DNA of 64,000 bases from Candidatus Buchananbacteria bacterium (GTDB taxonomy: Bacteria > Patescibacteriota > Patescibacteriia > 2-01-FULL-39-33). Both the position numbers and the translations under genes were made by a program. The notes beneath the pieces were generated by a model. The model made no database searches, had not been told where the DNA came from, and saw nothing but the letters and a program-made list of their open reading frames with translations. Positions within the stretch are counted from its first letter, which is position 1, and every line of letters begins with the position of its first letter. The stretch is taken from NCBI GenBank assembly GCA_041666945.1, contig JBAYFY010000004.1:6226-70225 (forward strand). The letters are read 5' to 3'. Positions 1,904-62,177 of this stretch are shown here, one piece after another.

Positions 1904-3124
1904 ATGAAAAAACTCATTATTGCAATCATCTGCGGCGCCGGCCTGCTTGCTGTTTCTCAATCAGCTTGGGCCTATACCGCCACTGAAGGCAGTTTAATCA
2001 AAACCAGCAATAACCCGGCCGTTTATTACATTGACGACAGTGGTTATCGCCACCTTTTTCCCAACCAAGCGGTTTTTTTCAGTTGGTACAAAGGTTCCTG
2101 GAGCGACCAATACATCACTGTTGTGACCGCTAACGAATTGTTGCAAATTCCGGCGGGAAAAAACGTAACAGTCAAACCGGGCTACGCCCTGATCCATTTT
2201 GACAACAGCTTAAGAATGTACGCCGTTCTGCCCGGCGGCAGATTATGCCGCGCTCCGGCCCATTACAATAATTACCAATACAATCGCGCCCTGATTCTTC
2301 CGGCCGGCTTTGAAAGCGATTACGACAACGACGGCTCCTGCGATATTACCGAAAATCAAAAACTGCCCGACGGCACGCTGTTAAGATACGCCGGATCCAA
2401 TGAGGTTTATTACATTCAGAACAGCCAAAAAAGACACGTAACCGAGGCCGGATTTAACGCCAATAATTTCCGTTGGGATTCAGTGATTGAAAACGTCAGC
2501 GCCTCCATGTATTACCCCGACGGCGGAACCATTTCCTCTCGTGAAGACAATATTTACAGCATTAATTATAATTTAGGCAGCAATTACCGCAACAGTTACA
2601 ATTACAGTTGCAGTGAAAATTGGACTTGCTACGCCTGGAGCGCCTGTTCCAACGGTTCGCAACACCGCAACTGCTTGGACAGCAACAGCTGCGGCACGAC
2701 TTACAACAAGCCGGCTACTTCCCAGGCCTGCTACACTTGCAATGAAAATTGGACCTGCAGTTCCTGGTCCTCCTGCTCTTACGGCAAACAATATCGCACC
2801 TGCTGGGACAACAACAGTTGCGGCACCACGGTCAGCAAACCTGTCACTTCCCAAACCTGCCACACCTGCAATGAAAGCTGGACCTGCAATTCCTGGTCAA
2901 CTTGTTCATCCAATAATCAATATAGAAATTGCTGGGACAACAACAGTTGCGGCACGACTTACAACAAGCCGGCCACTTCCCAAACCTGCTACAGTTGCAA
3001 CGAAAGCTGGAGCTGCACTTCCTGGAGCGTCTGCTCCAACGGCGTGAAATACAGGGAATGCTTGGACACCAATCGTTGCGGCACGACAGCCGGCAAACCG
3101 CTTGAATCACAAACCTGCTATTAA
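1904..3124 (+). CDS. Secreted protein with N-terminal signal peptide, two ~90-aa YYI-type repeats and 4-5 tandem ~41-aa six-cysteine modules (C-NE(N/S)W-C-SWS-C-S-G-YR-C-D-NSCGTT-KP-TSQ-CY-C)
   Basis: Signal peptide MKKLIIAIICGAGLLAVSQSAWA; tandem Cys modules obvious in translation and as ~123-bp DNA periodicity 2570-3120. Confidence 0.75.
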   Translation: MKKLIIAIICGAGLLAVSQSAWAYTATEGSLIKTSNNPAVYYIDDSGYRHLFPNQAVFFSWYKGSWSDQYITVVTANELLQIPAGKNVTVKPGYALIHFDNSLRMYAVLPGGRLCRAPAHYNNYQYNRALILPAGFESDYDNDGSCDITENQKLPDGTLLRYAGSNEVYYIQNSQKRHVTEAGFNANNFRWDSVIENVSASMYYPDGGTISSREDNIYSINYNLGSNYRNSYNYSCSENWTCYAWSACSNGSQHRNCLDSNSCGTTYNKPATSQACYTCNENWTCSSWSSCSYGKQYRTCWDNNSCGTTVSKPVTSQTCHTCNESWTCNSWSTCSSNNQYRNCWDNNSCGTTYNKPATSQTCYSCNESWSCTSWSVCSNGVKYRECLDTNRCGTTAGKPLESQTCY

Positions 3125-3219: not shown

Positions 3220-4308
3220 ATGAAATATATTTTTATTTTGGGCAATAATCCGGAACTGTCCGCGGCGGAAATCAAGGCCGTCCTGCCTCAAGCAAAAATC
3301 CTCAAGCAAAATCAATATTTTTTAGCGGCGGATCATCCCCGAATTGATTGTTCGGAATTAATGAAGCGCCTGGGCGGAACCATTAAGATCGGCTTGGTCT
3401 TGGGCGATCGGCCGGAAGCCGAGCCGATAATGGCTTCGGCCATGTCCAAAGTCAACGGCCGTTTTAATTTCGGCTTAAGTTTTTACGGCCGCAAACCTGA
3501 TAACTGGGGATTGAACGTCAAAAAACAACTGAAAGAGCAGGGTATTGCTTCTCGCTTAGTGACCAGCCGCGAACCGGCTTTGTCTGCCGTGATTGTCACC
3601 AAAGAAAAATGCCAAGATTACATCATTGCTCCGGGCTTTTTCGCCTCAACCTGCGCCGTGCAGGATTTTAAGGAATTCGGCAAACGCGACTTCGGCCGGC
3701 CGGCGGCTGACGCTTATTCGGGCATGTTGCCGCCTAAAGCCGCCAAGATGATGCTTAATCTTAGCGGGGCCAAGCCGGCTGATACTATCCTGGATCCGTT
3801 CTGCGGCTCCGGCACCATTCTCTCCGAAGCCCTGGCCATGGGCTACGCCAATTTAATCGGCACGGACCTGTCAGAGAAAGCGGTCAGCGACAGCAAAAAA
3901 AATCTGCAGTGGCTGGCTGAAGAATTGGCGATTAAAAATCATGGGATAAGGATTGAAAAACTTGACGTCAGGGAGCTGTCAAAAATTTTCAACAACATTG
4001 ATGCTATTGTCACCGAGCCGTATTTGGGCAAACCCATCAGGGGCAATGAGAATGCCGAGCAAATAAACTCAATCATCGCTGAATTATCCGATTTATACTT
4101 AAGCGCGTTCCAGCAATTCAAAAAAATCTTGGCCAAAAGCGGCAAAATCGTCATAATCTTTCCCGAATGGCATTTGCATGACAAAATCTACCGCTTGAAC
4201 ATCAGCGAGCGCGTCTCTCGTCTCGGCTTTAAGCGCTTAGACGGCGGGAATTTGTATTATAAACGCGAAGATCAAAAAGTTTGGCGCAACATAACCATCT
4301 GGCAATAA
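3220..4308 (+). CDS. Putative RNA (guanine-N2) methyltransferase, Trm11/RlmL-like class I SAM MTase
   Basis: DFGRP...GMLPPKAAKMMLNL and LDPFCGSGTILSEA motifs characteristic of Trm11/RlmL/UPF0020 N2-G methyltransferases. Confidence 0.6.
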   Translation: MKYIFILGNNPELSAAEIKAVLPQAKILKQNQYFLAADHPRIDCSELMKRLGGTIKIGLVLGDRPEAEPIMASAMSKVNGRFNFGLSFYGRKPDNWGLNVKKQLKEQGIASRLVTSREPALSAVIVTKEKCQDYIIAPGFFASTCAVQDFKEFGKRDFGRPAADAYSGMLPPKAAKMMLNLSGAKPADTILDPFCGSGTILSEALAMGYANLIGTDLSEKAVSDSKKNLQWLAEELAIKNHGIRIEKLDVRELSKIFNNIDAIVTEPYLGKPIRGNENAEQINSIIAELSDLYLSAFQQFKKILAKSGKIVIIFPEWHLHDKIYRLNISERVSRLGFKRLDGGNLYYKREDQKVWRNITIWQ

Positions 4309-4337: not shown

Positions 4338-4697
4338 CTTCATCATTCCCGCATACCCTGCCTACCGGCAGACAGGGGCGGGAATCCATTATTTATGGTT
4401 TTTAACTTCTTGGATCACCGCCTGCGCGGGGATGACGAAAACTGGATCCCCGCCTACGCGGGGATGACGAAGCGGTAAATGCTATCGCGGGAATGACGAA
4501 AACTGGATCCCCGCCTACGCGGGGATGACGAAGCGGTAAATGCTATCGCGGGAATGACGAAGCAGTAAGTGCTATAAATTTGAATCCCCGCCTGCGCGGG
4601 GATGACGAGTTGGATCCCCGCCTACGCGGGGATGACGAAGCGGTAAATGCTATCGCGGGAATGACGAGTTGGATCCACTCCTACGCGGGGATGACGG
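4338..4697. repeat. Palindromic repeat locus 1: long nested palindrome (attcccgc-ccctgcct.ccgg.agacaggg-gcgggaat) followed by a tandem/higher-order array of GGATCCCCGCCT(A/G)CGCGGGGATGACGA units with alternating short (5-6 nt) and long (~23-29 nt) linkers
   Basis: Read directly; same family as loci at 48236, 56181, 61671 (reverse-complement orientation); linkers are not unique, so not CRISPR. Confidence 0.85.
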
Positions 4698-4713: not shown

Positions 4714-5193
4714 ATGATAAAAATGTTTAATAAGTTAAACTATTTGCGTAGCAATAGAATCACGCAAGTAAAGTTGCCTATCTCCGCCGCGGCTCAAGAA
4801 TTGTCCGCGGCGCTTTTGGTCGCCACCGATTATGGGCAACGGCAACAACTGGGCGAATCATTGTTGGATGAACTTTGCGATGCGGCCAATATGGACATCG
4901 TCCATCTGACAATCAATGACACCAACCAAAAACATCGCCGCCGCAACGGCCGGATCGTCATGAAACGCTACGGCCTATACAAAGTCCGCGATCACGCCAT
5001 CTGTATAGAAAACCGCACGGCCGCGCGCGGACAAATAATTTCGGCCAAAAGCTTCTTAGACACTCTCTTGCATGAATGGTTGCACCACTACGACACTCTG
5101 AAATTAAAATTAAATTCCATCCATTCCAGCGGCTTTTATAGCCGGCTTAATGACTTAAAGGAAAAATTACGCATACCAAAAAAGAGTCAATAA
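4714..5193 (+). CDS. Hypothetical protein with HExxH motif (LLHEWLHHYD), possible SprT/zinc-metallopeptidase-like fold; start at 4714 or 4723 (upstream part of ORF 4669 is repeat-derived)
   Basis: ORF 4669-5193; first 15 codons lie inside the palindromic repeat array; HEWLH motif. Confidence 0.5.
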   Translation: MIKMFNKLNYLRSNRITQVKLPISAAAQELSAALLVATDYGQRQQLGESLLDELCDAANMDIVHLTINDTNQKHRRRNGRIVMKRYGLYKVRDHAICIENRTAARGQIISAKSFLDTLLHEWLHHYDTLKLKLNSIHSSGFYSRLNDLKEKLRIPKKSQ

Positions 5194-5243
5194 CGGCTCT
5201 TTTTTGTTTAATTTTAAACATTTTATGGTTGTCTGTAATCATC

Positions 5244-5272
5244 TTGACAAAAATTTGAGTATGTGATATAAT
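5244..5272 (+). promoter_or_regulatory. Sigma70-type promoter TTGACA-N17-TATAAT with extended -10 (TGTGATATAAT)
   Basis: cttgacaaaaatttgagtatgtgatataat ~80 nt upstream of CDS 5351. Confidence 0.55.
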
Positions 5273-5350
5273 TGATTATTGACTTAGATCAGTTATGAGT
5301 CATAACGGACATTACAAAATTATCACGTAACAATACCGGAGGGATTAGGG

Positions 5351-5933: not shown

Positions 5934-6434
5934 ATGAAATCTTATGAATCTGATAGGGTAAATAGTGTAGTTATTTTTGTCTTTGCCGTTTTAAGCGGCA
6001 TCATATTTTTTGCCTTTGGGACGGGGTTTCTTGCATCATTGTTACTCGCCATGCTATTTGCGGTGGTCGGATTTGCCATGCTTGTCTACCTTAATCAAAG
6101 CCAAGTACGGCCGAAAAATGACAGGCAAGATTCGGCATATCCTATCAGGCCATCCGATATTAATGCCACAAGACATCTATTTGATGCTTTCGGACATTAC
6201 GAAACGGAAATTTCAGCCGTATTACTGGTAGGACTGGCTCAAGAAAACGGTGATTGGCGCGATTTTACCAAAGCGGAAATCGATGAATTCAGCGGGCAGG
6301 ATTTCTATTTCAACCGGCTGACGTCCAGTGGAAAACCACCGATCAAAAAAAATGGTGACGGCACTTTTTCCTTTACTCATGAATTTATCGCCAGATGCTT
6401 TCAGGTGTCACCGGCCAATAACCAGGTAATTTAG
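5934..6434 (+). CDS. Hypothetical membrane-anchored protein (2 N-terminal TM helices + soluble domain)
   Basis: RBS-like aggaggacaaatcgccATG; hydrophobic N-terminus. Confidence 0.6.
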   Translation: MKSYESDRVNSVVIFVFAVLSGIIFFAFGTGFLASLLLAMLFAVVGFAMLVYLNQSQVRPKNDRQDSAYPIRPSDINATRHLFDAFGHYETEISAVLLVGLAQENGDWRDFTKAEIDEFSGQDFYFNRLTSSGKPPIKKNGDGTFSFTHEFIARCFQVSPANNQVI

Positions 6435-14045: not shown

Positions 14046-16511
14046 TTAACCGAATAATCCTTCTTTATTTTTGTTTTCTACTGCTTGCGGCGGCTCTTCC
14101 ACGGTTAGCGGAATATCCTGAGGTTGAGTATCTTCAACTGATTTTATTTCTTCTTTGTTTTCTTTGATTTCGACGGTCTCTTGAGGCGCGGCCGGTTGAG
14201 CGGCCGACTGATTGGCGCTATGGTCGCTGATTGGCTCGGGCAGTTGTCCCGCTCCCCGCTTCAAACCGATGTTCTGTTTAACCACGGCCTCGGCCGCGGA
14301 CTGGCCGGTCAAATCAATGAGCGGGGTCTTGGTTTGGGCATAACCCTCTTTGCTGGCAGTCAAATAATATTTGTTATTTTCGGCCAAAAAGCCGTATTCA
14401 CCGCGATTGTCGGTAACATAGAACTCCAGCATGCGGCCGTATTCGGGAGAAAAAATCCTAATAACCGCTTTGGCCAATGATTTCTTGTCAGTCAAATCAT
14501 AAACCTTGCCCCAACTGCGCCGACCCTTCGGTTTGTCAGTTAAACGCTTAAAAATAAGAAGCAAAATCAAATGCAGGGTCAAAATTAAAGCGGAAAAAAT
14601 TGACGGATAAATGAAAACATAGACCAAGGCCAGAAACGGACCGATTAAGCTAAAACTGGCCGCCCAATGCTCGCGACGGAACTTGGCCAAGGCCTGCTTA
14701 TCGGTAACAACCAAATTTTTGTCAGAGTCCACGGGGATATTCGGGGCAATCGTGCCCATTGAACCTTGAGGAATATTTATAACCTCGCCAAAATACAAAT
14801 CCAAATACTGGCCGTCGGACTTTTTGCCAACTAAAATCTCGGAAGGATAAACAAAACCGGTTTTCTCCACTTTAATGACATATTGGCCTTCTTGAGCGAA
14901 AAAAATAAAACGTCCGAATTTATCGGTTACCCGAGAAGTTACCAAGCGATCGGTGGCTTTATCATATAAGCGGACCAATGCTAAATCCACCGGCTTCTTG
15001 GTAATGGAATTGAAAACTACGCCCCAATCCTTGCGTCGCCGCCGGAATAAAAACAGCCAGGGTTGGGTAAATAAGAATTGCAGGATGGAAAAACTCCAAA
15101 AAGGCGCGGCCAAAACAACATTAACCAAGGCCAGGCCTACGGTTGCTTGAACGATTGCCTTCCCCGCTGGCGATTGGGCAATAGTTCTTGCCGGCGTTAA
15201 AAAATCCGCTACCGCTTTAAGCGAATCAACACCCGGCAATTGTTCCAAGATTTCCAAGGGCTTAATTATGGCAACGGACACCAGCCAACCGGAAACATCG
15301 GCCAAATTAGTCCCGACAGAATCCTGCAAAGTGAATTTCAAATCATAACGGCCGGCCGGTACGGGAGAAAATTGAGCGGCGTAAGTATTGCTTATGGCAT
15401 CGTAAACTAAAAAATAAACATAATTATTAACTGCCGATGATAAATCCATCCTGATTCGCTCTGTACCTGTCGGCACTTTGTCGGCGGCAATATAAACCGT
15501 AATCATTCCGCCGTCCGCGGAAACAACCGCTTCGCCAGCCGGCGAAAAAATGCTCGCGATACCGTCTTGACTGAAAATAAAATCACCTAAACTGACCGAT
15601 GGCGGAATAACAGGAGGAGTAGTCGTCGGAGTGGTGGTGGGCGGGATAACGGGAGGAGTAGTCGTCGGAGTGGTGGTGGGCGGGATAACGGGAGGAGTAG
15701 TCGTCGGAGTGGTGGTAACAACGAAAGGCACGCCGCTGATGCCGGCGCCTGAAGCGAAATTGTCTAAAGAATCATAAGCAAAAACCGTATAATAATATCT
15801 TGTATCGTTTGTTAATCCGGTATTTAAAAAACTGACTTCGGGACTGACCGCCGGTTCGCCCCAGCCATCATAAACCAATACGCCTGAAGCCAATGAGGGA
15901 TAATCAAAGGTAGAACGCCTGATAATGACGCCGGCAAAATTAGTACTGGTAGGATTTTGCCAAAATAAAGCCAATTGGCTGTCGCCGGCCACCAAGCGCA
16001 AACCGGCAACGTTAGTGATTAAATCAAAAGGCGGAGCGCTTTGGGTGGTAAAAGTATAATCACCCGTATTAGCTGAACCGCCGGTTGTATCTTGGCAGGC
16101 CAGATAAAAATGATACAGGGTCGCGGGACTTAAAGAAACAATAAGCGAGGAATGGGCCGTTACAGGAGAGATCTCGGCGGTTTGGCCGGTTAAGTAATCG
16201 GTGGTTGTACCCCAATGCAACTGGCATAGAGCGGGGTGGTTGGTTTGCCAAGTAATAGCGGCGCTGCTGACAGTCGTAGTGGCCACCCTAACATCGGAAA
16301 TTTCAAAACCGCCGCCGCAATTAGTGCAAGGAGGCGGACAATCAATGGGACAGGTTTCATGAGTTTCTCCGGTTTCGCAAACGCCATTGTTATTGCAGCC
16401 GCCGCCGACCGTCAAGCCGACAGTAAAACTATCGCTGGTAGTTACAGCCATGGCTGTCAACGGCAAAAGAACAAAAAATAAAATAATGGCTATTTTTCTG
16501 ACCGCTGACAT
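14046..16511 (-). CDS. Large (821 aa) secreted/membrane protein: signal peptide, Cys-rich N-term, fibronectin-III-like domain, (TTTPTTTPPVIPP)x3 linker, TM segments, CarboxypepD_reg-like beta-sandwich domains
   Basis: Signal peptide MSAVRKIAIILFFVLLPLTAMA; PT-rich 45-bp x3 DNA repeat at ~15601-15718; multiple hydrophobic helices mid-protein. Confidence 0.75.
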   Translation of the reverse strand: MSAVRKIAIILFFVLLPLTAMAVTTSDSFTVGLTVGGGCNNNGVCETGETHETCPIDCPPPCTNCGGGFEISDVRVATTTVSSAAITWQTNHPALCQLHWGTTTDYLTGQTAEISPVTAHSSLIVSLSPATLYHFYLACQDTTGGSANTGDYTFTTQSAPPFDLITNVAGLRLVAGDSQLALFWQNPTSTNFAGVIIRRSTFDYPSLASGVLVYDGWGEPAVSPEVSFLNTGLTNDTRYYYTVFAYDSLDNFASGAGISGVPFVVTTTPTTTPPVIPPTTTPTTTPPVIPPTTTPTTTPPVIPPSVSLGDFIFSQDGIASIFSPAGEAVVSADGGMITVYIAADKVPTGTERIRMDLSSAVNNYVYFLVYDAISNTYAAQFSPVPAGRYDLKFTLQDSVGTNLADVSGWLVSVAIIKPLEILEQLPGVDSLKAVADFLTPARTIAQSPAGKAIVQATVGLALVNVVLAAPFWSFSILQFLFTQPWLFLFRRRRKDWGVVFNSITKKPVDLALVRLYDKATDRLVTSRVTDKFGRFIFFAQEGQYVIKVEKTGFVYPSEILVGKKSDGQYLDLYFGEVINIPQGSMGTIAPNIPVDSDKNLVVTDKQALAKFRREHWAASFSLIGPFLALVYVFIYPSIFSALILTLHLILLLIFKRLTDKPKGRRSWGKVYDLTDKKSLAKAVIRIFSPEYGRMLEFYVTDNRGEYGFLAENNKYYLTASKEGYAQTKTPLIDLTGQSAAEAVVKQNIGLKRGAGQLPEPISDHSANQSAAQPAAPQETVEIKENKEEIKSVEDTQPQDIPLTVEEPPQAVENKNKEGLFG

Positions 16512-19916: not shown

Positions 19917-21146
19917 ATGACAAAATCTAAAATCCCCCGACTCATCAAACAAGAAGTCCAACGCCAAAAGCAAGGATTGACGATGATCGCTTCCGAAAAT
20001 TACTGCCCGCAGAATATTCTAAGCGCCATGGGCACCGCTTTATCCAATAAATACGCTGAAGGGTACCCCGGCAAGCGTTATTATTCGGGCAACAAATACA
20101 TTGACGAAATAGAGAGCGCCGCGCAAAAATTATGCTTGGAAATATTCGGCCTCCAGCCGGAAAAATGGCACGCCAATGTTCAGCCGCACTCCGGCTCCTC
20201 CGCCAATTTGGCGTGTTATCTTGGCTTGCTCCGGCCGGGCGCTAAAATCTTAGCCATGGACTTGTCTGCCGGCGGACATTTGACGCACGGTTCGCCGGTA
20301 AACTTCTCCGGCCGACTGTTTAAATTCTCTCATTACGGCGTAGATAAGAAAACCGAGCGATTGGATTATCAGGCCATCGCGCGCCTGGCCAAGAAAGAAC
20401 GGCCCGAAATGATCGTCTGCGGCGCCACCGCCTATCCGCGTCTGATTGATTTTAAAAAATTCCGGCAAATTGCCGATTCCTGCGGCGCCCTGCTTCTGGC
20501 GGACATCGCTCATATCGCCGGACTGATTATCGCCAAGGAGCATCCCTCACCCTTCCCTTACGCTGACGTTGTCACTTCCACCACGCACAAAACTTTGGGC
20601 GGACCGCGCAGCGCTTTTATCATTTGCCGCCGCGGTTTGGCCCAAGCGATTGATAAAGCCGTATTCCCCGGCCTCCAAGGCGGGCCGCTGGAGAACATGA
20701 TCGCGGCCAAGGCCTTGTGTTTTGAGCGGGCGTTGTCAAAAAATTTCGTCAAAATACAAAAACAAACAGTGGCCAATGCCAAAGTATTAGCCGAAACCTT
20801 AAAAAAATCCGATTTACGGCTAGTCGCCGGCGGCACGGATAATCATTTGCTCTTAGTGGATTTGCGTTCTGCCGGCCTAACCGGTAAAATTGCCGCCGAC
20901 GCTTTGGAAGACGCGGAAATTTATACCAATGCCAATATGATTCCCAATGATACGGCCAAACCGCTTAATCCTTCGGGCTTGCGTCTGGGTACGGCGGCTT
21001 TGACTACTCGCGGGATGAAAGAGAAAGAAATGAAATTGATCGGCCTGTGGATTGCCGAAATCGTCAAACGGCCGAATGACGCCAAATTAATAGCGCGGAT
21101 CAAAACAGAAGTCCATGACCTGACTAAAAAATTCCCGATTTATTGA
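19917..21146 (+). CDS. glyA: Serine hydroxymethyltransferase
   Basis: TSTTHKTLGGPR PLP-lysine motif, 409 aa. Confidence 0.92.
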   Translation: MTKSKIPRLIKQEVQRQKQGLTMIASENYCPQNILSAMGTALSNKYAEGYPGKRYYSGNKYIDEIESAAQKLCLEIFGLQPEKWHANVQPHSGSSANLACYLGLLRPGAKILAMDLSAGGHLTHGSPVNFSGRLFKFSHYGVDKKTERLDYQAIARLAKKERPEMIVCGATAYPRLIDFKKFRQIADSCGALLLADIAHIAGLIIAKEHPSPFPYADVVTSTTHKTLGGPRSAFIICRRGLAQAIDKAVFPGLQGGPLENMIAAKALCFERALSKNFVKIQKQTVANAKVLAETLKKSDLRLVAGGTDNHLLLVDLRSAGLTGKIAADALEDAEIYTNANMIPNDTAKPLNPSGLRLGTAALTTRGMKEKEMKLIGLWIAEIVKRPNDAKLIARIKTEVHDLTKKFPIY

Positions 21147-21218
21147 AAGTCCTTCGAACCTGCCTGCCGATAGGCAGGTACTCCGTCCGCTTGCGGCGGG
21201 TTCAACTTTATTAAAAAC

Positions 21219-45016: not shown

Positions 45017-45089
45017 TAAAATTAGATTAATTTTATTCGGCGTAAGAAAGTTAATTAATGGCAGAGTCCAGCGGATGTGGATAAGCATA

Positions 45090-45118
45090 TTGACAAAACA
45101 ATGATCATGTGATATAAT
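45090..45118 (+). promoter_or_regulatory. Sigma70 promoter TTGACA-N17-TATAAT with extended -10 (TGTGATATAAT), near-duplicate of promoter at 5244
   Basis: attgacaaaacaatgatcatgtgatataat. Confidence 0.55.
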
Positions 45119-45186
45119 GAATTATTGGATTAGAATCTATTCTAAACCGTAAAAGTACCTGACAAACAAACGCGGAGGATAAAAAG

Positions 45187-45836: not shown

Positions 45837-48225
45837 TTTTCTTCCGTCTTTTTTTATTTTTCTCCTCTTTCAATATCGCCACAGTCGTCTTCACTACCGT
45901 ATCGGGGTTTAAAGAAATACTGTCAATGCCCAGTCGTACCAGGAATCTGGCAAAGTCGGGATAATCCGACGGCGCTTGGCCGCAAATGCCGATTTTCCGT
46001 CCCGAGGCCTTAGCCACTTTGATCACAATGGATAACAATCGTTTAACCGCTTCGTTATTCTCATCGTATACATCAGCCACTAACTGCGAATCGCGATCCA
46101 CGCCCAGCGTCAATTGCGTTAAATCGTTGGAACCGATGGAAAAACCGTCAAAAATCTCGGCGAACTCTTCAGCCAGAATCACATTGGACGGGATTTCGCA
46201 CATCACATAAACTTCCAATCCATCATGTCCTTGTTTGAGGCCGTTTTTCTCCATGATCTTTATCACCTTCTTGCCCTCTTCCACTGTGCGGCAGAATGGC
46301 ACCATGACCTTGATATTTTTCAGCCCGAATTCCTCGCGGGCTTTTTTCAATGCCAAACATTCCAAAGCAAACGCTTTTTCATATTGCGGAGCGTAATAGC
46401 GGGAAGCGCCGCGCCAACCGATCATGGGGTTGCTCTCTTCCGGTTCAAACTGCTTGCCGCCGATCAGCGTGGCGTATTCGTTTGATTTGAAATCGGACAA
46501 GCGGATGATCACGTCTTTGGGATAAAAGGCGGCGGCGATCATGCCGATGCCTTCGGCTAACTTGTCAACGAAAAATCGGGGCTTCTTCGGATAATTTACG
46601 GTTAGCTCGGCAATCTCGGCTTTGGCTTTTTGATCTTTGATTTTAGAATAGTTCAGAAGGGCCAAGGGATGAATCTTAATGTAATTGGCGATGATGAATT
46701 CTTCGCGCGCCAAGCCCACGCCGTCGTTGGGCAAAAAAGAAAATGACAAGGCGGCATAGGGATTTCCGACGTTCATCATGATTTTTGTTCTGGGCCGAGG
46801 CAAGCGTTTCAAATTCGTCCGCCTGATCTTAAACGGCGCCAAACCGCCATACACCTTGCCGATTTCTCCCTCGGCGCAAGATACGGTTACGGTCTGGCCG
46901 GTCTTTATTTTTTTGGTCGCTACGCTGGTACCCACGACGCACGGTACGCCCAATTCCCGCGAAACAATCGCGGCGTGGCAGGTCCGGCCGCCCTCGTTGG
47001 TAACAATCGCGGCGGCGCGTTTCATAAACGGTTCCCAGTCCGGGTCGGTCATGGCCGCTACCAGCACCTCGCCGTCCTTAAAATCATTCAGCTCGGAAAT
47101 ATTCTTGATTACGCGCGCCTTGCCGCCGCCGATTTTCACTCCCACGCTGGAACCGGTAAATAATAATTCGCCTTGGCCCGACATTACGTATTCTTCCAAG
47201 AGGTTAGGATTTTTATTGCTGGCGATCGTTTCCGGCCGGGCTTGGACAATGTATAACTTATCGGTCCGGCCGTCTCGGGCCCATTCAATATCCATCGGCC
47301 GCTTATAATGCTTTTCAATTATCACCGCCCATTTAGCCAACTGTAAAATTTCTTCATCGGTTAGAACGTATTTCTTCTGTTGCAGAAGCGGCACGGCCAC
47401 TGAACGCGTCGGCCGAATCGGGCTATCGGCATAAATCAGTTTTTTGTTCTTGTCACCGACCTGTTTGGAGACAATCGGCCTAAACCCCTTGGCCAAAGTG
47501 TTCTTGAAAACGTAATATTCATCGGGATTGACCGTGCCCTTGACCACGAATTCACCCAAGCCGTAAGCGGCGTTAATCAAAATCACATTGGGATTGCCGC
47601 TCTCGGTGTCAATGGTAAACATTACGCCGGCCGCGCCCAAATCCGAACGCACCATTTTCTGCACGCCGACTGAAATCAAAACTTTTTCATGCTTGAACTT
47701 CTGATCAATCCGGTAAGAAATCGCCCGTTCCGAAAAGAGCGAGGCAAAGCAGCGTTTAATCGCCCAAAATAATTCCTGTTCGCCGCGAATATTCAAATAC
47801 GATTCCTGTTGGCCGGCAAAAGAGGCGTTGGGCATGTCCTCGGCCGTAGCCGAAGACCTGACGGCAACATCGGTCCTGTCCGCGCCGTATTGCTTGGATA
47901 GCTTTTTGTATGCTTGCGATATTTCCGCTTTTAATTCTTCAGGCAAGTCCGCGGTTAAAATCATTTTCTTAATCACCGCTGATTTTTTGGCCAAATTCCT
48001 GTCGGTTACGCCTTTAAGCCCGGCGTAAATCGCCCGTTTGATTTTAGCGCCAGACAAAAACTTATTATACGCCTGGGCGGTAATGGCAAAACCATTCGGT
48101 ATGGGCACGCCCCGACCGGTTAATTTTTGATACATTTCGCCCAAGCTGGCGTTTTTCCCGCCAACCCGGCCTGAATCTTTCATCGTCAATTCCTTAAACC
48201 ACAGAATGTTTTTTTGTTTTGTCAT
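45832..48225 (-). CDS. ppsA: Phosphoenolpyruvate synthase (pyruvate, water dikinase)
   Basis: 797 aa; ATP-grasp N-term, mobile His domain GGRTCHAAIVSRELGVPCVVG, PEP-utilising C-term. Confidence 0.9.
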   Translation of the reverse strand: MTKQKNILWFKELTMKDSGRVGGKNASLGEMYQKLTGRGVPIPNGFAITAQAYNKFLSGAKIKRAIYAGLKGVTDRNLAKKSAVIKKMILTADLPEELKAEISQAYKKLSKQYGADRTDVAVRSSATAEDMPNASFAGQQESYLNIRGEQELFWAIKRCFASLFSERAISYRIDQKFKHEKVLISVGVQKMVRSDLGAAGVMFTIDTESGNPNVILINAAYGLGEFVVKGTVNPDEYYVFKNTLAKGFRPIVSKQVGDKNKKLIYADSPIRPTRSVAVPLLQQKKYVLTDEEILQLAKWAVIIEKHYKRPMDIEWARDGRTDKLYIVQARPETIASNKNPNLLEEYVMSGQGELLFTGSSVGVKIGGGKARVIKNISELNDFKDGEVLVAAMTDPDWEPFMKRAAAIVTNEGGRTCHAAIVSRELGVPCVVGTSVATKKIKTGQTVTVSCAEGEIGKVYGGLAPFKIRRTNLKRLPRPRTKIMMNVGNPYAALSFSFLPNDGVGLAREEFIIANYIKIHPLALLNYSKIKDQKAKAEIAELTVNYPKKPRFFVDKLAEGIGMIAAAFYPKDVIIRLSDFKSNEYATLIGGKQFEPEESNPMIGWRGASRYYAPQYEKAFALECLALKKAREEFGLKNIKVMVPFCRTVEEGKKVIKIMEKNGLKQGHDGLEVYVMCEIPSNVILAEEFAEIFDGFSIGSNDLTQLTLGVDRDSQLVADVYDENNEAVKRLLSIVIKVAKASGRKIGICGQAPSDYPDFARFLVRLGIDSISLNPDTVVKTTVAILKEEKNKKRRKKM

Positions 48226-48235
48226 AACCTCCTTT

Positions 48236-48303
48236 ACTTTGTCATGCCCGTGTACCTTGTCATGCCCGTGTACCTTGTCATCCCCGTGCAGACGGGGATC
48301 CAG
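48236..48303. repeat. Palindromic repeat locus 2 (variant units cttgtcatgcccgtgtac x2 + gtcatccccgtgcagacggggatccag)
   Basis: Same GTCATCCCCG..CGGGGATCC core as other loci; directly upstream of ppsA start. Confidence 0.75.
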
Positions 48304-48380
48304 AATTTATCTTAATATCTTAATTATACTCCCAAAAAGATAATCGCGCATTACCTGCAATAATCTTCAGAACAAACGGC

Positions 48381-56095: not shown

Positions 56096-56124
56096 TTGAC
56101 AAATAAAACCGCCCGTGCTATACT
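56096..56124 (+). promoter_or_regulatory. Sigma70 promoter TTGACA-N17-TATACT (nusA)
   Basis: cttgacaaataaaaccgcccgtgctatact. Confidence 0.45.
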
Positions 56125-56180
56125 GGTTACAGATGATTAATGACAGCCCTAGCCGGCTGTCATTTTTTACAAAAACAATA

Positions 56181-56365
56181 CGTCATTCCCGCGCACCCTG
56201 CCTGCCGGCAGGCAGGGGCGGGGATCCAATTTTCGTCTTTCGTCATCCCCGCGTAAGCGGGGATCCAAAAAATTAAAAACCATAAATAATAGACCCACAG
56301 ACAAATCCTCCCGCTCGCTTTGCTCGCTTACGGATTTTCTGCCCCTGCCGGCAGGCAGGGATGAC
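56181..56365. repeat. Palindromic repeat locus 3: long nested palindrome cgtcattcccgcg-caccctgcctgccggcaggcaggg-gcggggatcc, short unit cgtcatccccgcgtaagcggggatcc, cgctcgct motifs, partial copy cccctgccggcaggcagggatgac
   Basis: Read directly; spurious minus ORF 56167-56367 derives from it. Confidence 0.8.
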
Positions 56366-56391
56366 AATAAAGAAAATAATCTAATACTAAT

Positions 56392-58029: not shown

Positions 58030-58175
58030 GTAGTTCCCCGGGGCAAACCCGGGGGTGATAGGGGAACTTACGTACTAACGCAGCTCGGCAAGCCGAGCAG
58101 TATTCGACTACATTGGCGTCGCTCGCTCGGAATCCAGCGCTTTGAAGCGCTGGTTCGCTCGCTCACTAGCCAATA
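58030..58175 (+). ncRNA. Hairpin-dense region downstream of nusA (candidate structured RNA or repeat-derived element)
   Basis: agttcccc-ggggcaaacccgggg-...ggggaact; gctcggc-aa-gccgagc; ccagcgctt-tg-aagcgctgg flanked by direct repeats tcgctcgctc. Confidence 0.3.
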
Positions 58176-58210
58176 AAACCGACCCGGTCAGCCGAGTCGG
58201 TTTTATATTT
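58176..58210 (+). terminator. Rho-independent terminator of nusA
   Basis: aaaccgac-loop-gtcggttt followed by ttatattt. Confidence 0.65.
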
Positions 58211-61670: not shown

Positions 61671-62099
61671 TCGTCATCCCCTTACTGCTTTGTCATCCCC
61701 GCGCAGGCGGGGATCCATAATTTATAGCGATTTACTGCTCCGTCATCCCCGCGAAGGCGGGGATCCAGTTTCCGTCATCCCCGCGCAGGCGGGGATCCAG
61801 TTTCCGTCATCCCCGCGCAGGCGGGGATCCAGAACCTATAGCAACTTACTGCTTCGTCATCCCCGCGCAGGCGGGGATCCAGTTTTCGTCATCCCCGCGC
61901 AGGCGGGGATCCAGTTTTCGTCATCCCCGCGCAGGCGGGGATCCAGAACCTATAGCAACTTACTGCTTCGTCATCCCCGCGTAGGCGGGGATCCAGTTTC
62001 CGTCATCCCCGCGCAGGCGGGGATCCAGAGTTTATAGCAATTTACTGCAATGGATTCCCGCCCTTTCCTGCCGGTAGGCAAGGCGCGCGGGAATGACGG
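61671..62099. repeat. Palindromic repeat locus 4: about 10 copies of GTCATCCCCGCGCAGGCGGGGATCCAG separated alternately by 5-nt (tttcc/ttttc) and 23-nt (aacctatagcaacttactgcttc) linkers forming a ~112-bp higher-order repeat, ending in a long nested palindrome
   Basis: Read directly; identical long linker occurs twice so not CRISPR spacers; ORF 61690-62037 is a translation artefact (PRRRGS/HPRAGGDPV repeats). Confidence 0.9.
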
Positions 62100-62177
62100 A
62101 TAAAAACATAATGTTTAAATTATATCACGGACGTTGACTGGCAGGCAATAATCCACTATACTTAAAAGGTATAAAAT

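Follow-up and report, generated by a model that had tools for sequence, protein, structure and literature searches.

Repeat clusters in the window

The window analysed here is a 64,000-bp stretch of contig JBAYFY010000004.1 from Candidatus Buchananbacteria (positions 6,226 to 70,225 of the forward strand), which encodes an LTD/PKD surface protein, many small proteins without a Pfam match and salvage enzymes, and which carries a family of short hairpin-forming repeats gathered in four clusters. The repeat unit is 28 nt long and reads CGTC-ATCCCCGC-GNAG-GCGGGGAT-CCAG, comprising an unpaired 5' tag, an 8-bp stem, a 4-nt loop and a 3' tail. Seventeen units are spread over the four loci, compared with about 0.1 expected by chance; searching the 27-mer with up to five substitutions likewise gave 17 matches, and the 16-nt core CCCCGCGCAGGCGGGG (up to two mismatches) was found 16 times, against 0.08 in shuffled sequences. 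All 17 units open with the tag CGTC or TGTC, and the unpaired tail CCA is present in 16 of them, the unit at 4581-4607 having TCA, with a T instead of a C directly after the stem. Three further units are located in the next 10 kb to the right of the window (L122, the contig extension beyond its right end), and all 20 are intergenic. Folded as single-stranded DNA (ssDNA), the unit forms eight pairs and a 4-nt loop at -9.7 kcal/mol (z = -4.2), in agreement with the 8-bp stem and 4-nt loop proposed in the initial annotation, and the unit hairpins are computed to be stable on both strands.

The clusters in the window are composed of the following features:

61672-62098, plus strand: largest mosaic array, made up of a truncated unit, nine full units and a terminal inverted long-palindrome unit
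61672-61690, plus strand: truncated unit CGTCATCCCC-TTACTGCTT
61691, 61741, 61773, 61805, 61855, 61887, 61919, 61969 and 62001, plus strand: starts of the nine full units
62051-62098, minus strand: inverted long-palindrome unit P, with CGTCATTCCCGC arms and a degenerate CCTTGCCTACCGGCAGGAAAGG core, closing the largest array
61690-62037, plus strand: array-derived open reading frame (ORF) of 115 aa, cycling through SSPRRRGS / RHPRAGGDP / VIPAQAGIQ, which is the repeat in three frames
4341-4696, minus strand: second mosaic array, in the opposite orientation, with six full units, three half units and a long-palindrome unit
4411-4437, 4443-4469, 4504-4530, 4581-4607, 4611-4637 and 4670-4696, minus strand: full units of the second array
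Interleaved in the second array: three 29-nt half units (CGTCATTCCCGCG + ATAGCATTTACCGCTT)
4341-4388, plus strand: terminal long-palindrome unit of the second array
48236-48303, plus strand: ppsA-side cluster, with two 18-nt partial units (TGTCATGCCCGTGTACCT) and a full TGTC-tagged unit at 48276-48303
56181-56366, plus strand: nusA-leader cluster, with a long-palindrome unit at 56181-56228, a full unit at 56241-56268 and a linker common to other loci
56342-56366, minus strand: inverted GTCAT-tagged CCCTGCC...GGCAGGG variant in the nusA-leader cluster

The reverse-complement array, the variants near ppsA and nusA, and the occurrence of a nested long palindrome at three of the loci (4341-4388, 56181-56228 and 62051-62098) had all been annotated beforehand and were recovered. 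Splitting every cluster at its [C/T]GTCAT tag yields a small set of modules:

R32: the unit followed by GTTTY
R50: the unit followed by GAAYYTATAGCRAYTTACTGCTT
T19: R50 with an internal deletion that brings CGTCATCCCC right up to TTACTGCTT
H29: CGTCATTCCCGCG followed by ATAGCATTTACCGCTT
P: a CCCTGCCTGCCGGCAGGCAGGG palindrome between CGTCATTCCCGC arms

Within the largest array, the full-unit consensus is CGTCATCCCCGCG[C/A/T]AGGCGGGGATCCA; six of the nine full units are identical to it and the other three have one mismatch each, which favours recent amplification or homogenisation over decay. Start-to-start distances run 50, 32, 32, 50, 32, 32, 50 and 32 nt, and these 32-nt and 50-nt modules build three 114-bp higher-order copies, reported by Tandem Repeats Finder as a period of 114 bp with 3.0 copies and 95% match, in agreement with a second repeat search. 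The three blocks diverge by 5-10% from one another. About ten tandem copies had been counted initially, which is right, and a higher-order period of roughly 112 bp had been noted, which is present with an exact value of 114 bp; the linkers do not strictly alternate between 5 and 23 nt as then described, two short linkers being followed by one long. At the end of the array, the last direct unit and P can pair into a long composite hairpin (62001-62100; computed at -29.3 kcal/mol, z = -5.3). The 115-aa ORF is spurious, as the initial annotation had stated: it is there to be read, and its translation is a three-frame read-out of the repeat.

The arrays at 61672 and 4341 have a design in common with a fifth cluster, situated in the spacer of the groES-groEL operon (L122 3990-4340, about 5.5-6 kb past the right end of the window), namely a head-to-tail run closed by one inverted P unit, so that clusters of this type are bounded by inverted CGTCAT...ATGACG ends. 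In the groES-groEL cluster, the 19-nt truncated unit occurs in runs, alongside two full units, a canonical ATTCCCGCGAAGGCGGGAAT unit and two long-palindrome units. Short modules (AAAAACCATAAATAAT and GACAAATCCTC...CGGATTT) recur between loci. Inspection of the array borders for a target-site consensus revealed T-rich left flanks and nothing convincing beyond them.

Palindromic repeats of 27-28 nt at regular spacing invite comparison with clustered regularly interspaced short palindromic repeats (CRISPR). Here the would-be spacers are either 4-5 nt long or copies of a 22-23-nt module that recurs within and between loci, and this repetition of linkers, which would be unique in a CRISPR, practically refutes an array of the CRISPR or CRISPR-like kind; the initial annotation had likewise ruled out a CRISPR. 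No cas Pfam family was found in the approximately 80 kb of annotated contig, and in unrelated genomes (at least 120 stretches listed, see below) the repeat occurs as single copies or dimers, dispersed across genomes and phyla.

Identity of the repeat unit

The initial annotation recognised a repeat family resembling repetitive extragenic palindromic (REP) sequences and bacterial interspersed mosaic elements (BIME), and took it for an element not described before. The first part holds, since this is a dispersed extragenic palindrome family in mosaic clusters, and the second is wrong. CGTC-1 REPs are defined by a CGTC tag (TGTC and CCTC being tolerated), an 8-bp stem starting with AT, a 4-nt loop and a CCA tail, and the dRS3 repeat of Neisseria belongs to this family of CGTC-tagged REPs (PMC3733652). 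The window unit has the CGTC/TGTC tag, the AT-starting 8-bp stem, the 4-nt loop and the CCA tail, and is multi-copy and extragenic. The dRS3 repeat was subsequently extended to the 28-nt Neisseria Transformation Sequence (NTS) CGTCATTCCCGCGMAVGCGGGAATCYRG (Chenal 2025, PMC11893778), with which the unit matches at 26 of 28 positions, the only difference being a compensatory T7C/A22G change in the stem. The same exchange of a T-A for a C-G pair is all that separates it from the 21-mer ATTCCCGCGCAGGCGGGAATC, the master sequence of the Neisseria REPINs (REP doublets forming hairpins), which is paired with the Group 2 REP-associated tyrosine transposase (RAYT) NMAA_0235 (Bertels & Rainey, bioRxiv 10.1101/2021.07.10.451892). 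The published search pattern for Ssn-related motifs (SRM), HGTCWYN(0-2)YYVSBRHN(0-5)WNVSBRGN(0-2)RNCYNB (PMC11893778), has 12 matches in the window, compared with 0.19 in 100 shuffles, and three more in L122.

These observations, together with the distribution described in the next section, lead us to interpret the arrays as Ssn-related-motif hairpin repeats (SRM/NTS, CGTC-1 REP, dRS3-type) with an SsnA-type nuclease as partner, a reading to which we give a probability of about 0.7. Like the NTS/SRM-SsnA system (PMC11893778), with which they agree in tag, stem length, loop, tail and orientation, the window repeats cluster in intergenic DNA beside a surface-protein gene and reside in a host that is probably a symbiont. 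In contrast to that system, their stem carries the compensatory C-G pair, they form long head-to-tail arrays with a 114-bp period and an extra long-palindrome unit type, and a search of about 80 kb of the contig revealed no ssnA. The CGTC-1 units published earlier are mostly head-to-head dimers from five phyla, and seldom form clusters (PMC3733652), whereas those of the window are mainly head-to-tail and come from a sixth lineage. Patescibacteria are not discussed in the main text of the SRM survey of RefSeq reference genomes (PMC11893778). New here are the Patescibacteria host, the comparative evidence of recent gain, and head-to-tail arrays that are long, have a higher-order period and include a long-palindrome unit type.

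A scan of the whole window with Rfam at gathering thresholds gave two tRNAs only, and permissive scans of two arrays gave sub-threshold matches to FtrB, Bp1_684, sR23 and SpF66 (16-22 bits, against thresholds of 42-66). The Neisseria mosaic elements known as NIMEs reportedly consist of the palindrome and short companion modules in alternation, and differ in length from strain to strain. The window repeats have the core palindrome ATYCCC-N8-GGGRAT in common with dRS3 and the NIMEs, and both the mosaic of palindrome and companion modules and the variation in array length are also seen here. The companion modules themselves are unrelated in sequence and are 16-23 nt long versus 50-150 bp in Neisseria, the host is phylogenetically remote with a genome of probably about 1 Mb, and no filamentous-phage or IS110-type integrase was seen.

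Distribution of the repeat and the link with SsnA

When one genome per species was scanned for the exact 25-mer of the repeat, it was found in at least 120 stretches (G+C content 30-74%) from at least 10 phyla, where about 0.004 chance matches would be expected according to our estimate from the stated database size. Among the matches listed, the hosts include Alpha-, Beta-, Gamma- and Deltaproteobacteria, Planctomycetota, Patescibacteria, Cloacimonadota, Omnitrophota, Chloroflexota, Gemmatimonadota, Bacteroidota/Rhodothermota and Elusimicrobia.

SsnA is a 94-aa single-domain GIY-YIG protein (cd10448) that binds and cuts the NTS only as ssDNA and only on one strand; binding hinges most on the C just after the palindrome, and cutting, which takes place just upstream of the hairpin, needs the three nucleotides before the stem (PMC11893778). 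The window units present these orientation, cleavage and binding nucleotides, with CGTC upstream of the stem and C after it in all full units except 4581-4607 (T). In Neisseria, SsnA restricts recombination of incoming transforming ssDNA that bears the motif (PMC11893778). According to the main text of the same study, ssnA homologues across bacteria are flanked by SRMs, 81% of the genomes with more than 200 SRMs carry ssnA, the NTS clusters of Neisseria also adjoin genes for membrane and surface proteins, and SRM-rich genomes are enriched in symbionts.

Genes of the expected kind were found next to the repeat in other phyla. In three of the 120 sampled stretches, a gene for a single-domain GIY-YIG protein of 92-95 aa (Pfam PF01541) is directly flanked by the 25-mer (L016, Gammaproteobacteria; L053, Rubrivirga, with the motif on both sides; L073, Phycisphaerae), while the chance that a given single-copy gene falls in a random 8-kb window of a 4-Mb genome is, by our estimate, about 0.2%. 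A profile search with these ssnA-like proteins detected a 96-aa homologue in the Parcubacteria-labelled metagenome-assembled genome (MAG) GCA_026395595.1 (L216), with a CGTCATTCCC-N8-GGGAATGACG palindrome upstream and, downstream, a direct and an inverted copy of the canonical NTS. When the ORFs located up to 1.5 kb from the 120 sampled copies were clustered all against all, no family stood out clearly as a partner, spurious high-GC ORFs dominating the result, and the link with ssnA is taken from the literature rather than from this clustering. An 81-aa GIY-YIG ORF in a Candidatus Moraniibacteriota MAG (L022, 1700-2400) was rejected as an ssnA candidate. The repeat does not flank it, and it has a duplicated tRNA 5' half on one side and the complete tRNA on the other, so that it resembles a homing endonuclease encoded by an intron or insertion within a tRNA gene. 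A profile-search match on a 943-kb contig (P0182) was likewise dismissed as a member of the Patescibacteria, its neighbours being cytochrome oxidase genes.

The initial annotation had suggested looking for a RAYT or an IS200-like gene, and according to a corresponding interpretation the repeats would be classical REP/REPIN sequences copied by a RAYT (an IS200-like transposase of the HUH type), with the last direct unit and P forming a REPIN doublet and SsnA being irrelevant here. The treatment of the Neisseria 21-mer as a REPIN master sequence with a Group 2 RAYT (bioRxiv 10.1101/2021.07.10.451892) speaks for this, as do the inverted unit at the end of the arrays and the long hairpin into which the terminal pair folds; the filled and empty sites described below would fit any mobile element. 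Apart from the terminal inverted unit, most units are arranged head-to-tail. On the other side, a tblastn search with the E. coli RayT, itself a Group 2 RAYT, returned nothing at E < 0.8 in the window, the contig extensions, the relatives and 8 kb around each of the 120 sampled copies. No called gene in the approximately 80 kb has a Y1_Tnp Pfam match, no RAYT flanked by CGTC units was found in any species (Di Nocera 2013, PMC3733652), and the tag is CGTC, as opposed to the GTAG shown to be cut by RAYT (PMC3733652). We therefore consider copying by a RAYT improbable, and a RAYT/IS200 partner is probably the wrong expectation, the experimentally documented partner of the motif being SsnA and no RAYT lying beside the sampled copies. 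The general likeness to the REP-BIME-REPIN sequences of E. coli and Pseudomonas remains: both are short palindromes outside genes that bear an unpaired tag and are grouped in mosaic clusters, and both form ssDNA hairpins thought to be handled by a small nuclease or transposase, the differences lying in the tag, in the lack of a nearby RAYT and in a documented partner of the GIY-YIG rather than the HUH type. In the approximately 80 kb of readable source contig, no RAYT, other transposase or cas gene was found.

Comparison with relatives

The window was compared with the contigs carrying its two closest NusA matches (86% and 85% identity), Ga0265297_10000004 (L127; 957,791 bp) and Ga0376277_0000383 (249,088 bp), of which the 21-kb neighbourhoods are in synteny with the window. 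Both of these matches are labelled 'Patescibacteria group bacterium', while more distant ones belong to Candidatus Buchananbacteria, an assignment with which the gene content of the window agrees. These syntenic neighbourhoods contain no unit, half unit or SRM match (0 hits of the SRM pattern in 54 kb). The spacer between the LTD gene and the GT2 gene, which measures 554 nt in the window, is only 88 and 86 nt long in the relatives, with both flanks and the GT2 promoter aligning. The nusA leader of the window holds a repeat cluster of about 190 nt, whereas in the relatives (L127, L129) the promoter and hairpin are followed almost directly by the ATG, and the block of about 70 nt upstream of ppsA is absent from L127. 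Because the orthologous sites are empty in the relatives, the clusters appear to have been gained in the lineage of the window; precise loss on three occasions per relative is less likely.

A metagenome scan with the linker-plus-tag pattern TTACYRCTYCGTCATYCCC gave 85 stretches, nearly all without a full unit and consistent with chance matches to 15 specified bases; the only informative one is the related metagenome contig L153 (Ga0172379_10001081, 47% GC), in which an array built to the same design occupies another locus.

Copy number of the largest array

A second assembly of this sequence is available in the European Nucleotide Archive (ENA) under ERZ27249449 (contig k141_268277; 142,989 bp), and is 100% identical to the window over all other stretches compared. 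At the largest array it contains a single 114-bp block, against three in the window. The difference is in register and amounts to exactly 228 bp (2 x 114), with three full units in the ENA assembly versus nine in the window; in the annotation of the ENA assembly, no gene is called across this shorter array. The copy number in the window is consequently not secure, and either population length variation or collapse by the assembler can account for the difference.

That two assemblies of the same sequence differ by exactly two 114-bp units could also point to the array, or its length, being an assembly artefact. We regard this as very improbable: the repeat family occupies five separate loci of the contig in both assemblies, and the related contig L153, from another study, has an array of the same design. 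The three 114-bp blocks differ from one another, as given above, and for this reason the longer version is not a trivial duplication error. The doubt is limited to copy number.

Gene context and leaders

The neighbouring genes were identified in the initial annotation as ppsA, nusA and the LTD surface-protein gene, identities with which the Pfam matches (LTD/PKD for the last) agree. The ppsA-side cluster begins about 10 nt upstream of the ribosome-binding site of ppsA (start codon at 48225, minus strand), and a conserved TATAAT box is present beyond it on the minus strand (48323-48328), as seen by eye and in the alignment, no full promoter being called. The nusA cluster is preceded by a conserved promoter and leader hairpin, and followed by the nusA ATG (56392). 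This promoter (56096-56124) is a near-consensus TTGACA-17-TG-TATACT and the hairpin (56141-56168; TGACAGCC...GGCTGTCATTTTTT) has an 8-bp stem and a T6 run, and both are nearly invariant in the two relatives; the hairpin was seen by eye and was not listed by the terminator scan. Together they could be an autoregulatory attenuator of NusA. Two sites bear on the LTD/PKD gene:

62119-62148, minus strand: promoter-like site TTGCCT-18-TG-TATAAT, conserved in the relatives, upstream of the LTD/PKD gene and beyond the array
61655-61628, minus strand: second promoter-like site, non-conserved, between the array and the LTD gene

If the site at 62119-62148 is used, the whole array would be transcribed in antisense within a 5' untranslated region of about 0.5 kb of the LTD gene. 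The second array is flanked by a methyltransferase gene (3220-4308) and by an ORF at 4714-5193. The latter encodes a protein of 159 aa without a Pfam match, whose HEWLH motif, of the HExxH type, hints at a small metallopeptidase or an SprT-like protein.

With conserved promoter-like boxes on one side and start codons on the other, the clusters are probably transcribed as parts of leaders, as far as matches to promoter consensus sequences indicate. E. coli REPs alter mRNA stability, processing or translation, and the clusters could be inert or decaying insertions that act only in cis on RNA through such effects, without any protein partner. Their likely transcription, the presence of one cluster inside the groES-groEL operon, the stability of the hairpins on both strands and the lack of a partner gene nearby are in line with this interpretation. 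It fits poorly with the number of identical units (six of nine without a mismatch in the largest array) and with the stems, which have no T-run, the terminator scan showing no terminator-like site in or beside the arrays. The conservation of the 28-nt sequence, including the unpaired tag and tail, across at least 10 phyla is difficult to account for by an RNA hairpin role alone, and is what would be expected of a protein recognition site. An action on RNA alone is thus possible and rather doubtful; it is compatible with the SRM/SsnA interpretation.

Other repeats and neighbouring features

Another family of dispersed repeats, about 110-150 nt long and 88-91% identical, was found at 58036-58178 (minus strand) and at positions 1-47, continuing into L124, the contig extension upstream of position 1 (6130-6272); it is also present in L153 (4757-4866). 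It begins directly after a terminator-like hairpin. Its outer inverted repeats are TTGGC...GCCAA, its direct repeats GAGCGAGCGA, and a CCAGCGCTTCAAAGCGCTGG hairpin lies at its centre; no Rfam family matched it at the gathering threshold. In addition, a 75-nt stretch located right after the serine hydroxymethyltransferase (SHMT) gene (21139-21212) is 89% identical to L153 3616-3690, and could be a conserved terminator or a third small repeat common to the two.

In the relative L127 (17987-20428), a gene of the Mg-chelatase/ComM type is truncated to 293 aa versus 504 aa and abuts a gene for a 556-aa large serine recombinase, while the copy in the window is intact, which suggests that an integrative element was inserted in the comM homologue of L127.

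Three further repeats lie in the window. An ORF of 406 aa without a Pfam match (1904-3124) contains about three copies of a 129-nt tandem repeat (2604-3118; 73-79% identity) that looks as though it encodes a repeated Cys/Asn/Thr-rich protein module. Three tandem 39-nt copies (15601-15717; 92-97% identity) inside the ORF at 14046-16511, which spans 821 aa and for which the database gene call is shorter (788 aa), are a candidate for in-frame length variation. A 62-nt direct repeat (5227-5288 and 45073-45134; 76% identity) containing TTGACAAAA...TGTGATATAAT looks like a strong promoter cassette shared by two unrelated small membrane-protein genes, upstream of which it lies.

Proposed mechanism and significance

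Under the SRM/SsnA interpretation, the unit CGTCATCCCCGCGCAGGCGGGGATCCAG would fold as ssDNA into a directional hairpin, and an SsnA-type GIY-YIG nuclease would bind that strand. The units would travel with companion modules, namely the 16-23-nt ATAGCA..TTACTGCTT linker, truncated units and the inverted long-palindrome unit, each cluster forming a NIME-like mosaic with inverted CGTCAT...ATGACG ends. The clusters would have entered intergenic or 5'-leader DNA after the split from the nearest sampled relatives, and would then have grown via in-register tandem duplication of the 114-bp block. We infer that the source genome encodes its own SsnA, which would act on these sites.

Several points weigh against this interpretation. 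No ssnA-like or GIY-YIG gene was detected in the approximately 80 kb of the source contig by a four-sequence hidden Markov model run on six-frame ORFs or in the Pfam tables, and the attribution of MAG GCA_026395595.1 to the Parcubacteria is its database label only. The published SRM pattern, with its loops limited to 5 nt or less, does not cover the long-palindrome units, and the difference in array length may reflect assembly collapse and not biology. Head-to-tail CGTC arrays are negligible or rare outside Neisseria and Wolbachia (PMC3733652). Among genomes with more than 200 SRMs, 19% have no detectable ssnA, as given in the main text of the SRM survey (PMC11893778), and mobility by Ssn is a hypothesis even in Neisseria.

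A bolder version, in which the direct units, linkers and terminal inverted P constitute a mobile cassette of Ssn (GIY-YIG)-driven ssDNA copying, is speculative and in our judgement unlikely. If it were true, the filled and empty sites together with the near-identical units would be the first comparative evidence of active NTS/SRM mobility, and the cassette would land preferentially in promoter-proximal leaders, in the reduced genome of an episymbiont living by DNA uptake. In a still more radical, orphan variant, the genome would carry the sites and no ssnA, and they would be read by the nuclease of a partner organism or by an unrelated enzyme.

At a practical level, the array yields a false 115-aa ORF, and repeat finders could mistake such arrays for CRISPRs. 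The repeat family was tied to a function only in 2025, with the SsnA ssDNA nuclease, and the locus described here adds a new host, a case of recent gain and, unless the assembler collapsed the array, a case of array growth. The placement of the clusters in gene leaders, including that of a surface-protein gene, echoes the pattern in Neisseria. Patescibacteria, also known as the candidate phyla radiation (CPR), are small-genome episymbionts thought to depend on the uptake of foreign DNA. The effect of the clusters may be merely structural, on the leaders; one guess is that, in an organism dependent on DNA uptake, they dampen recombination or repair near the surface-protein gene beside them. A system that cuts ssDNA at marked sites would be biologically relevant in Patescibacteria that rely on such uptake.

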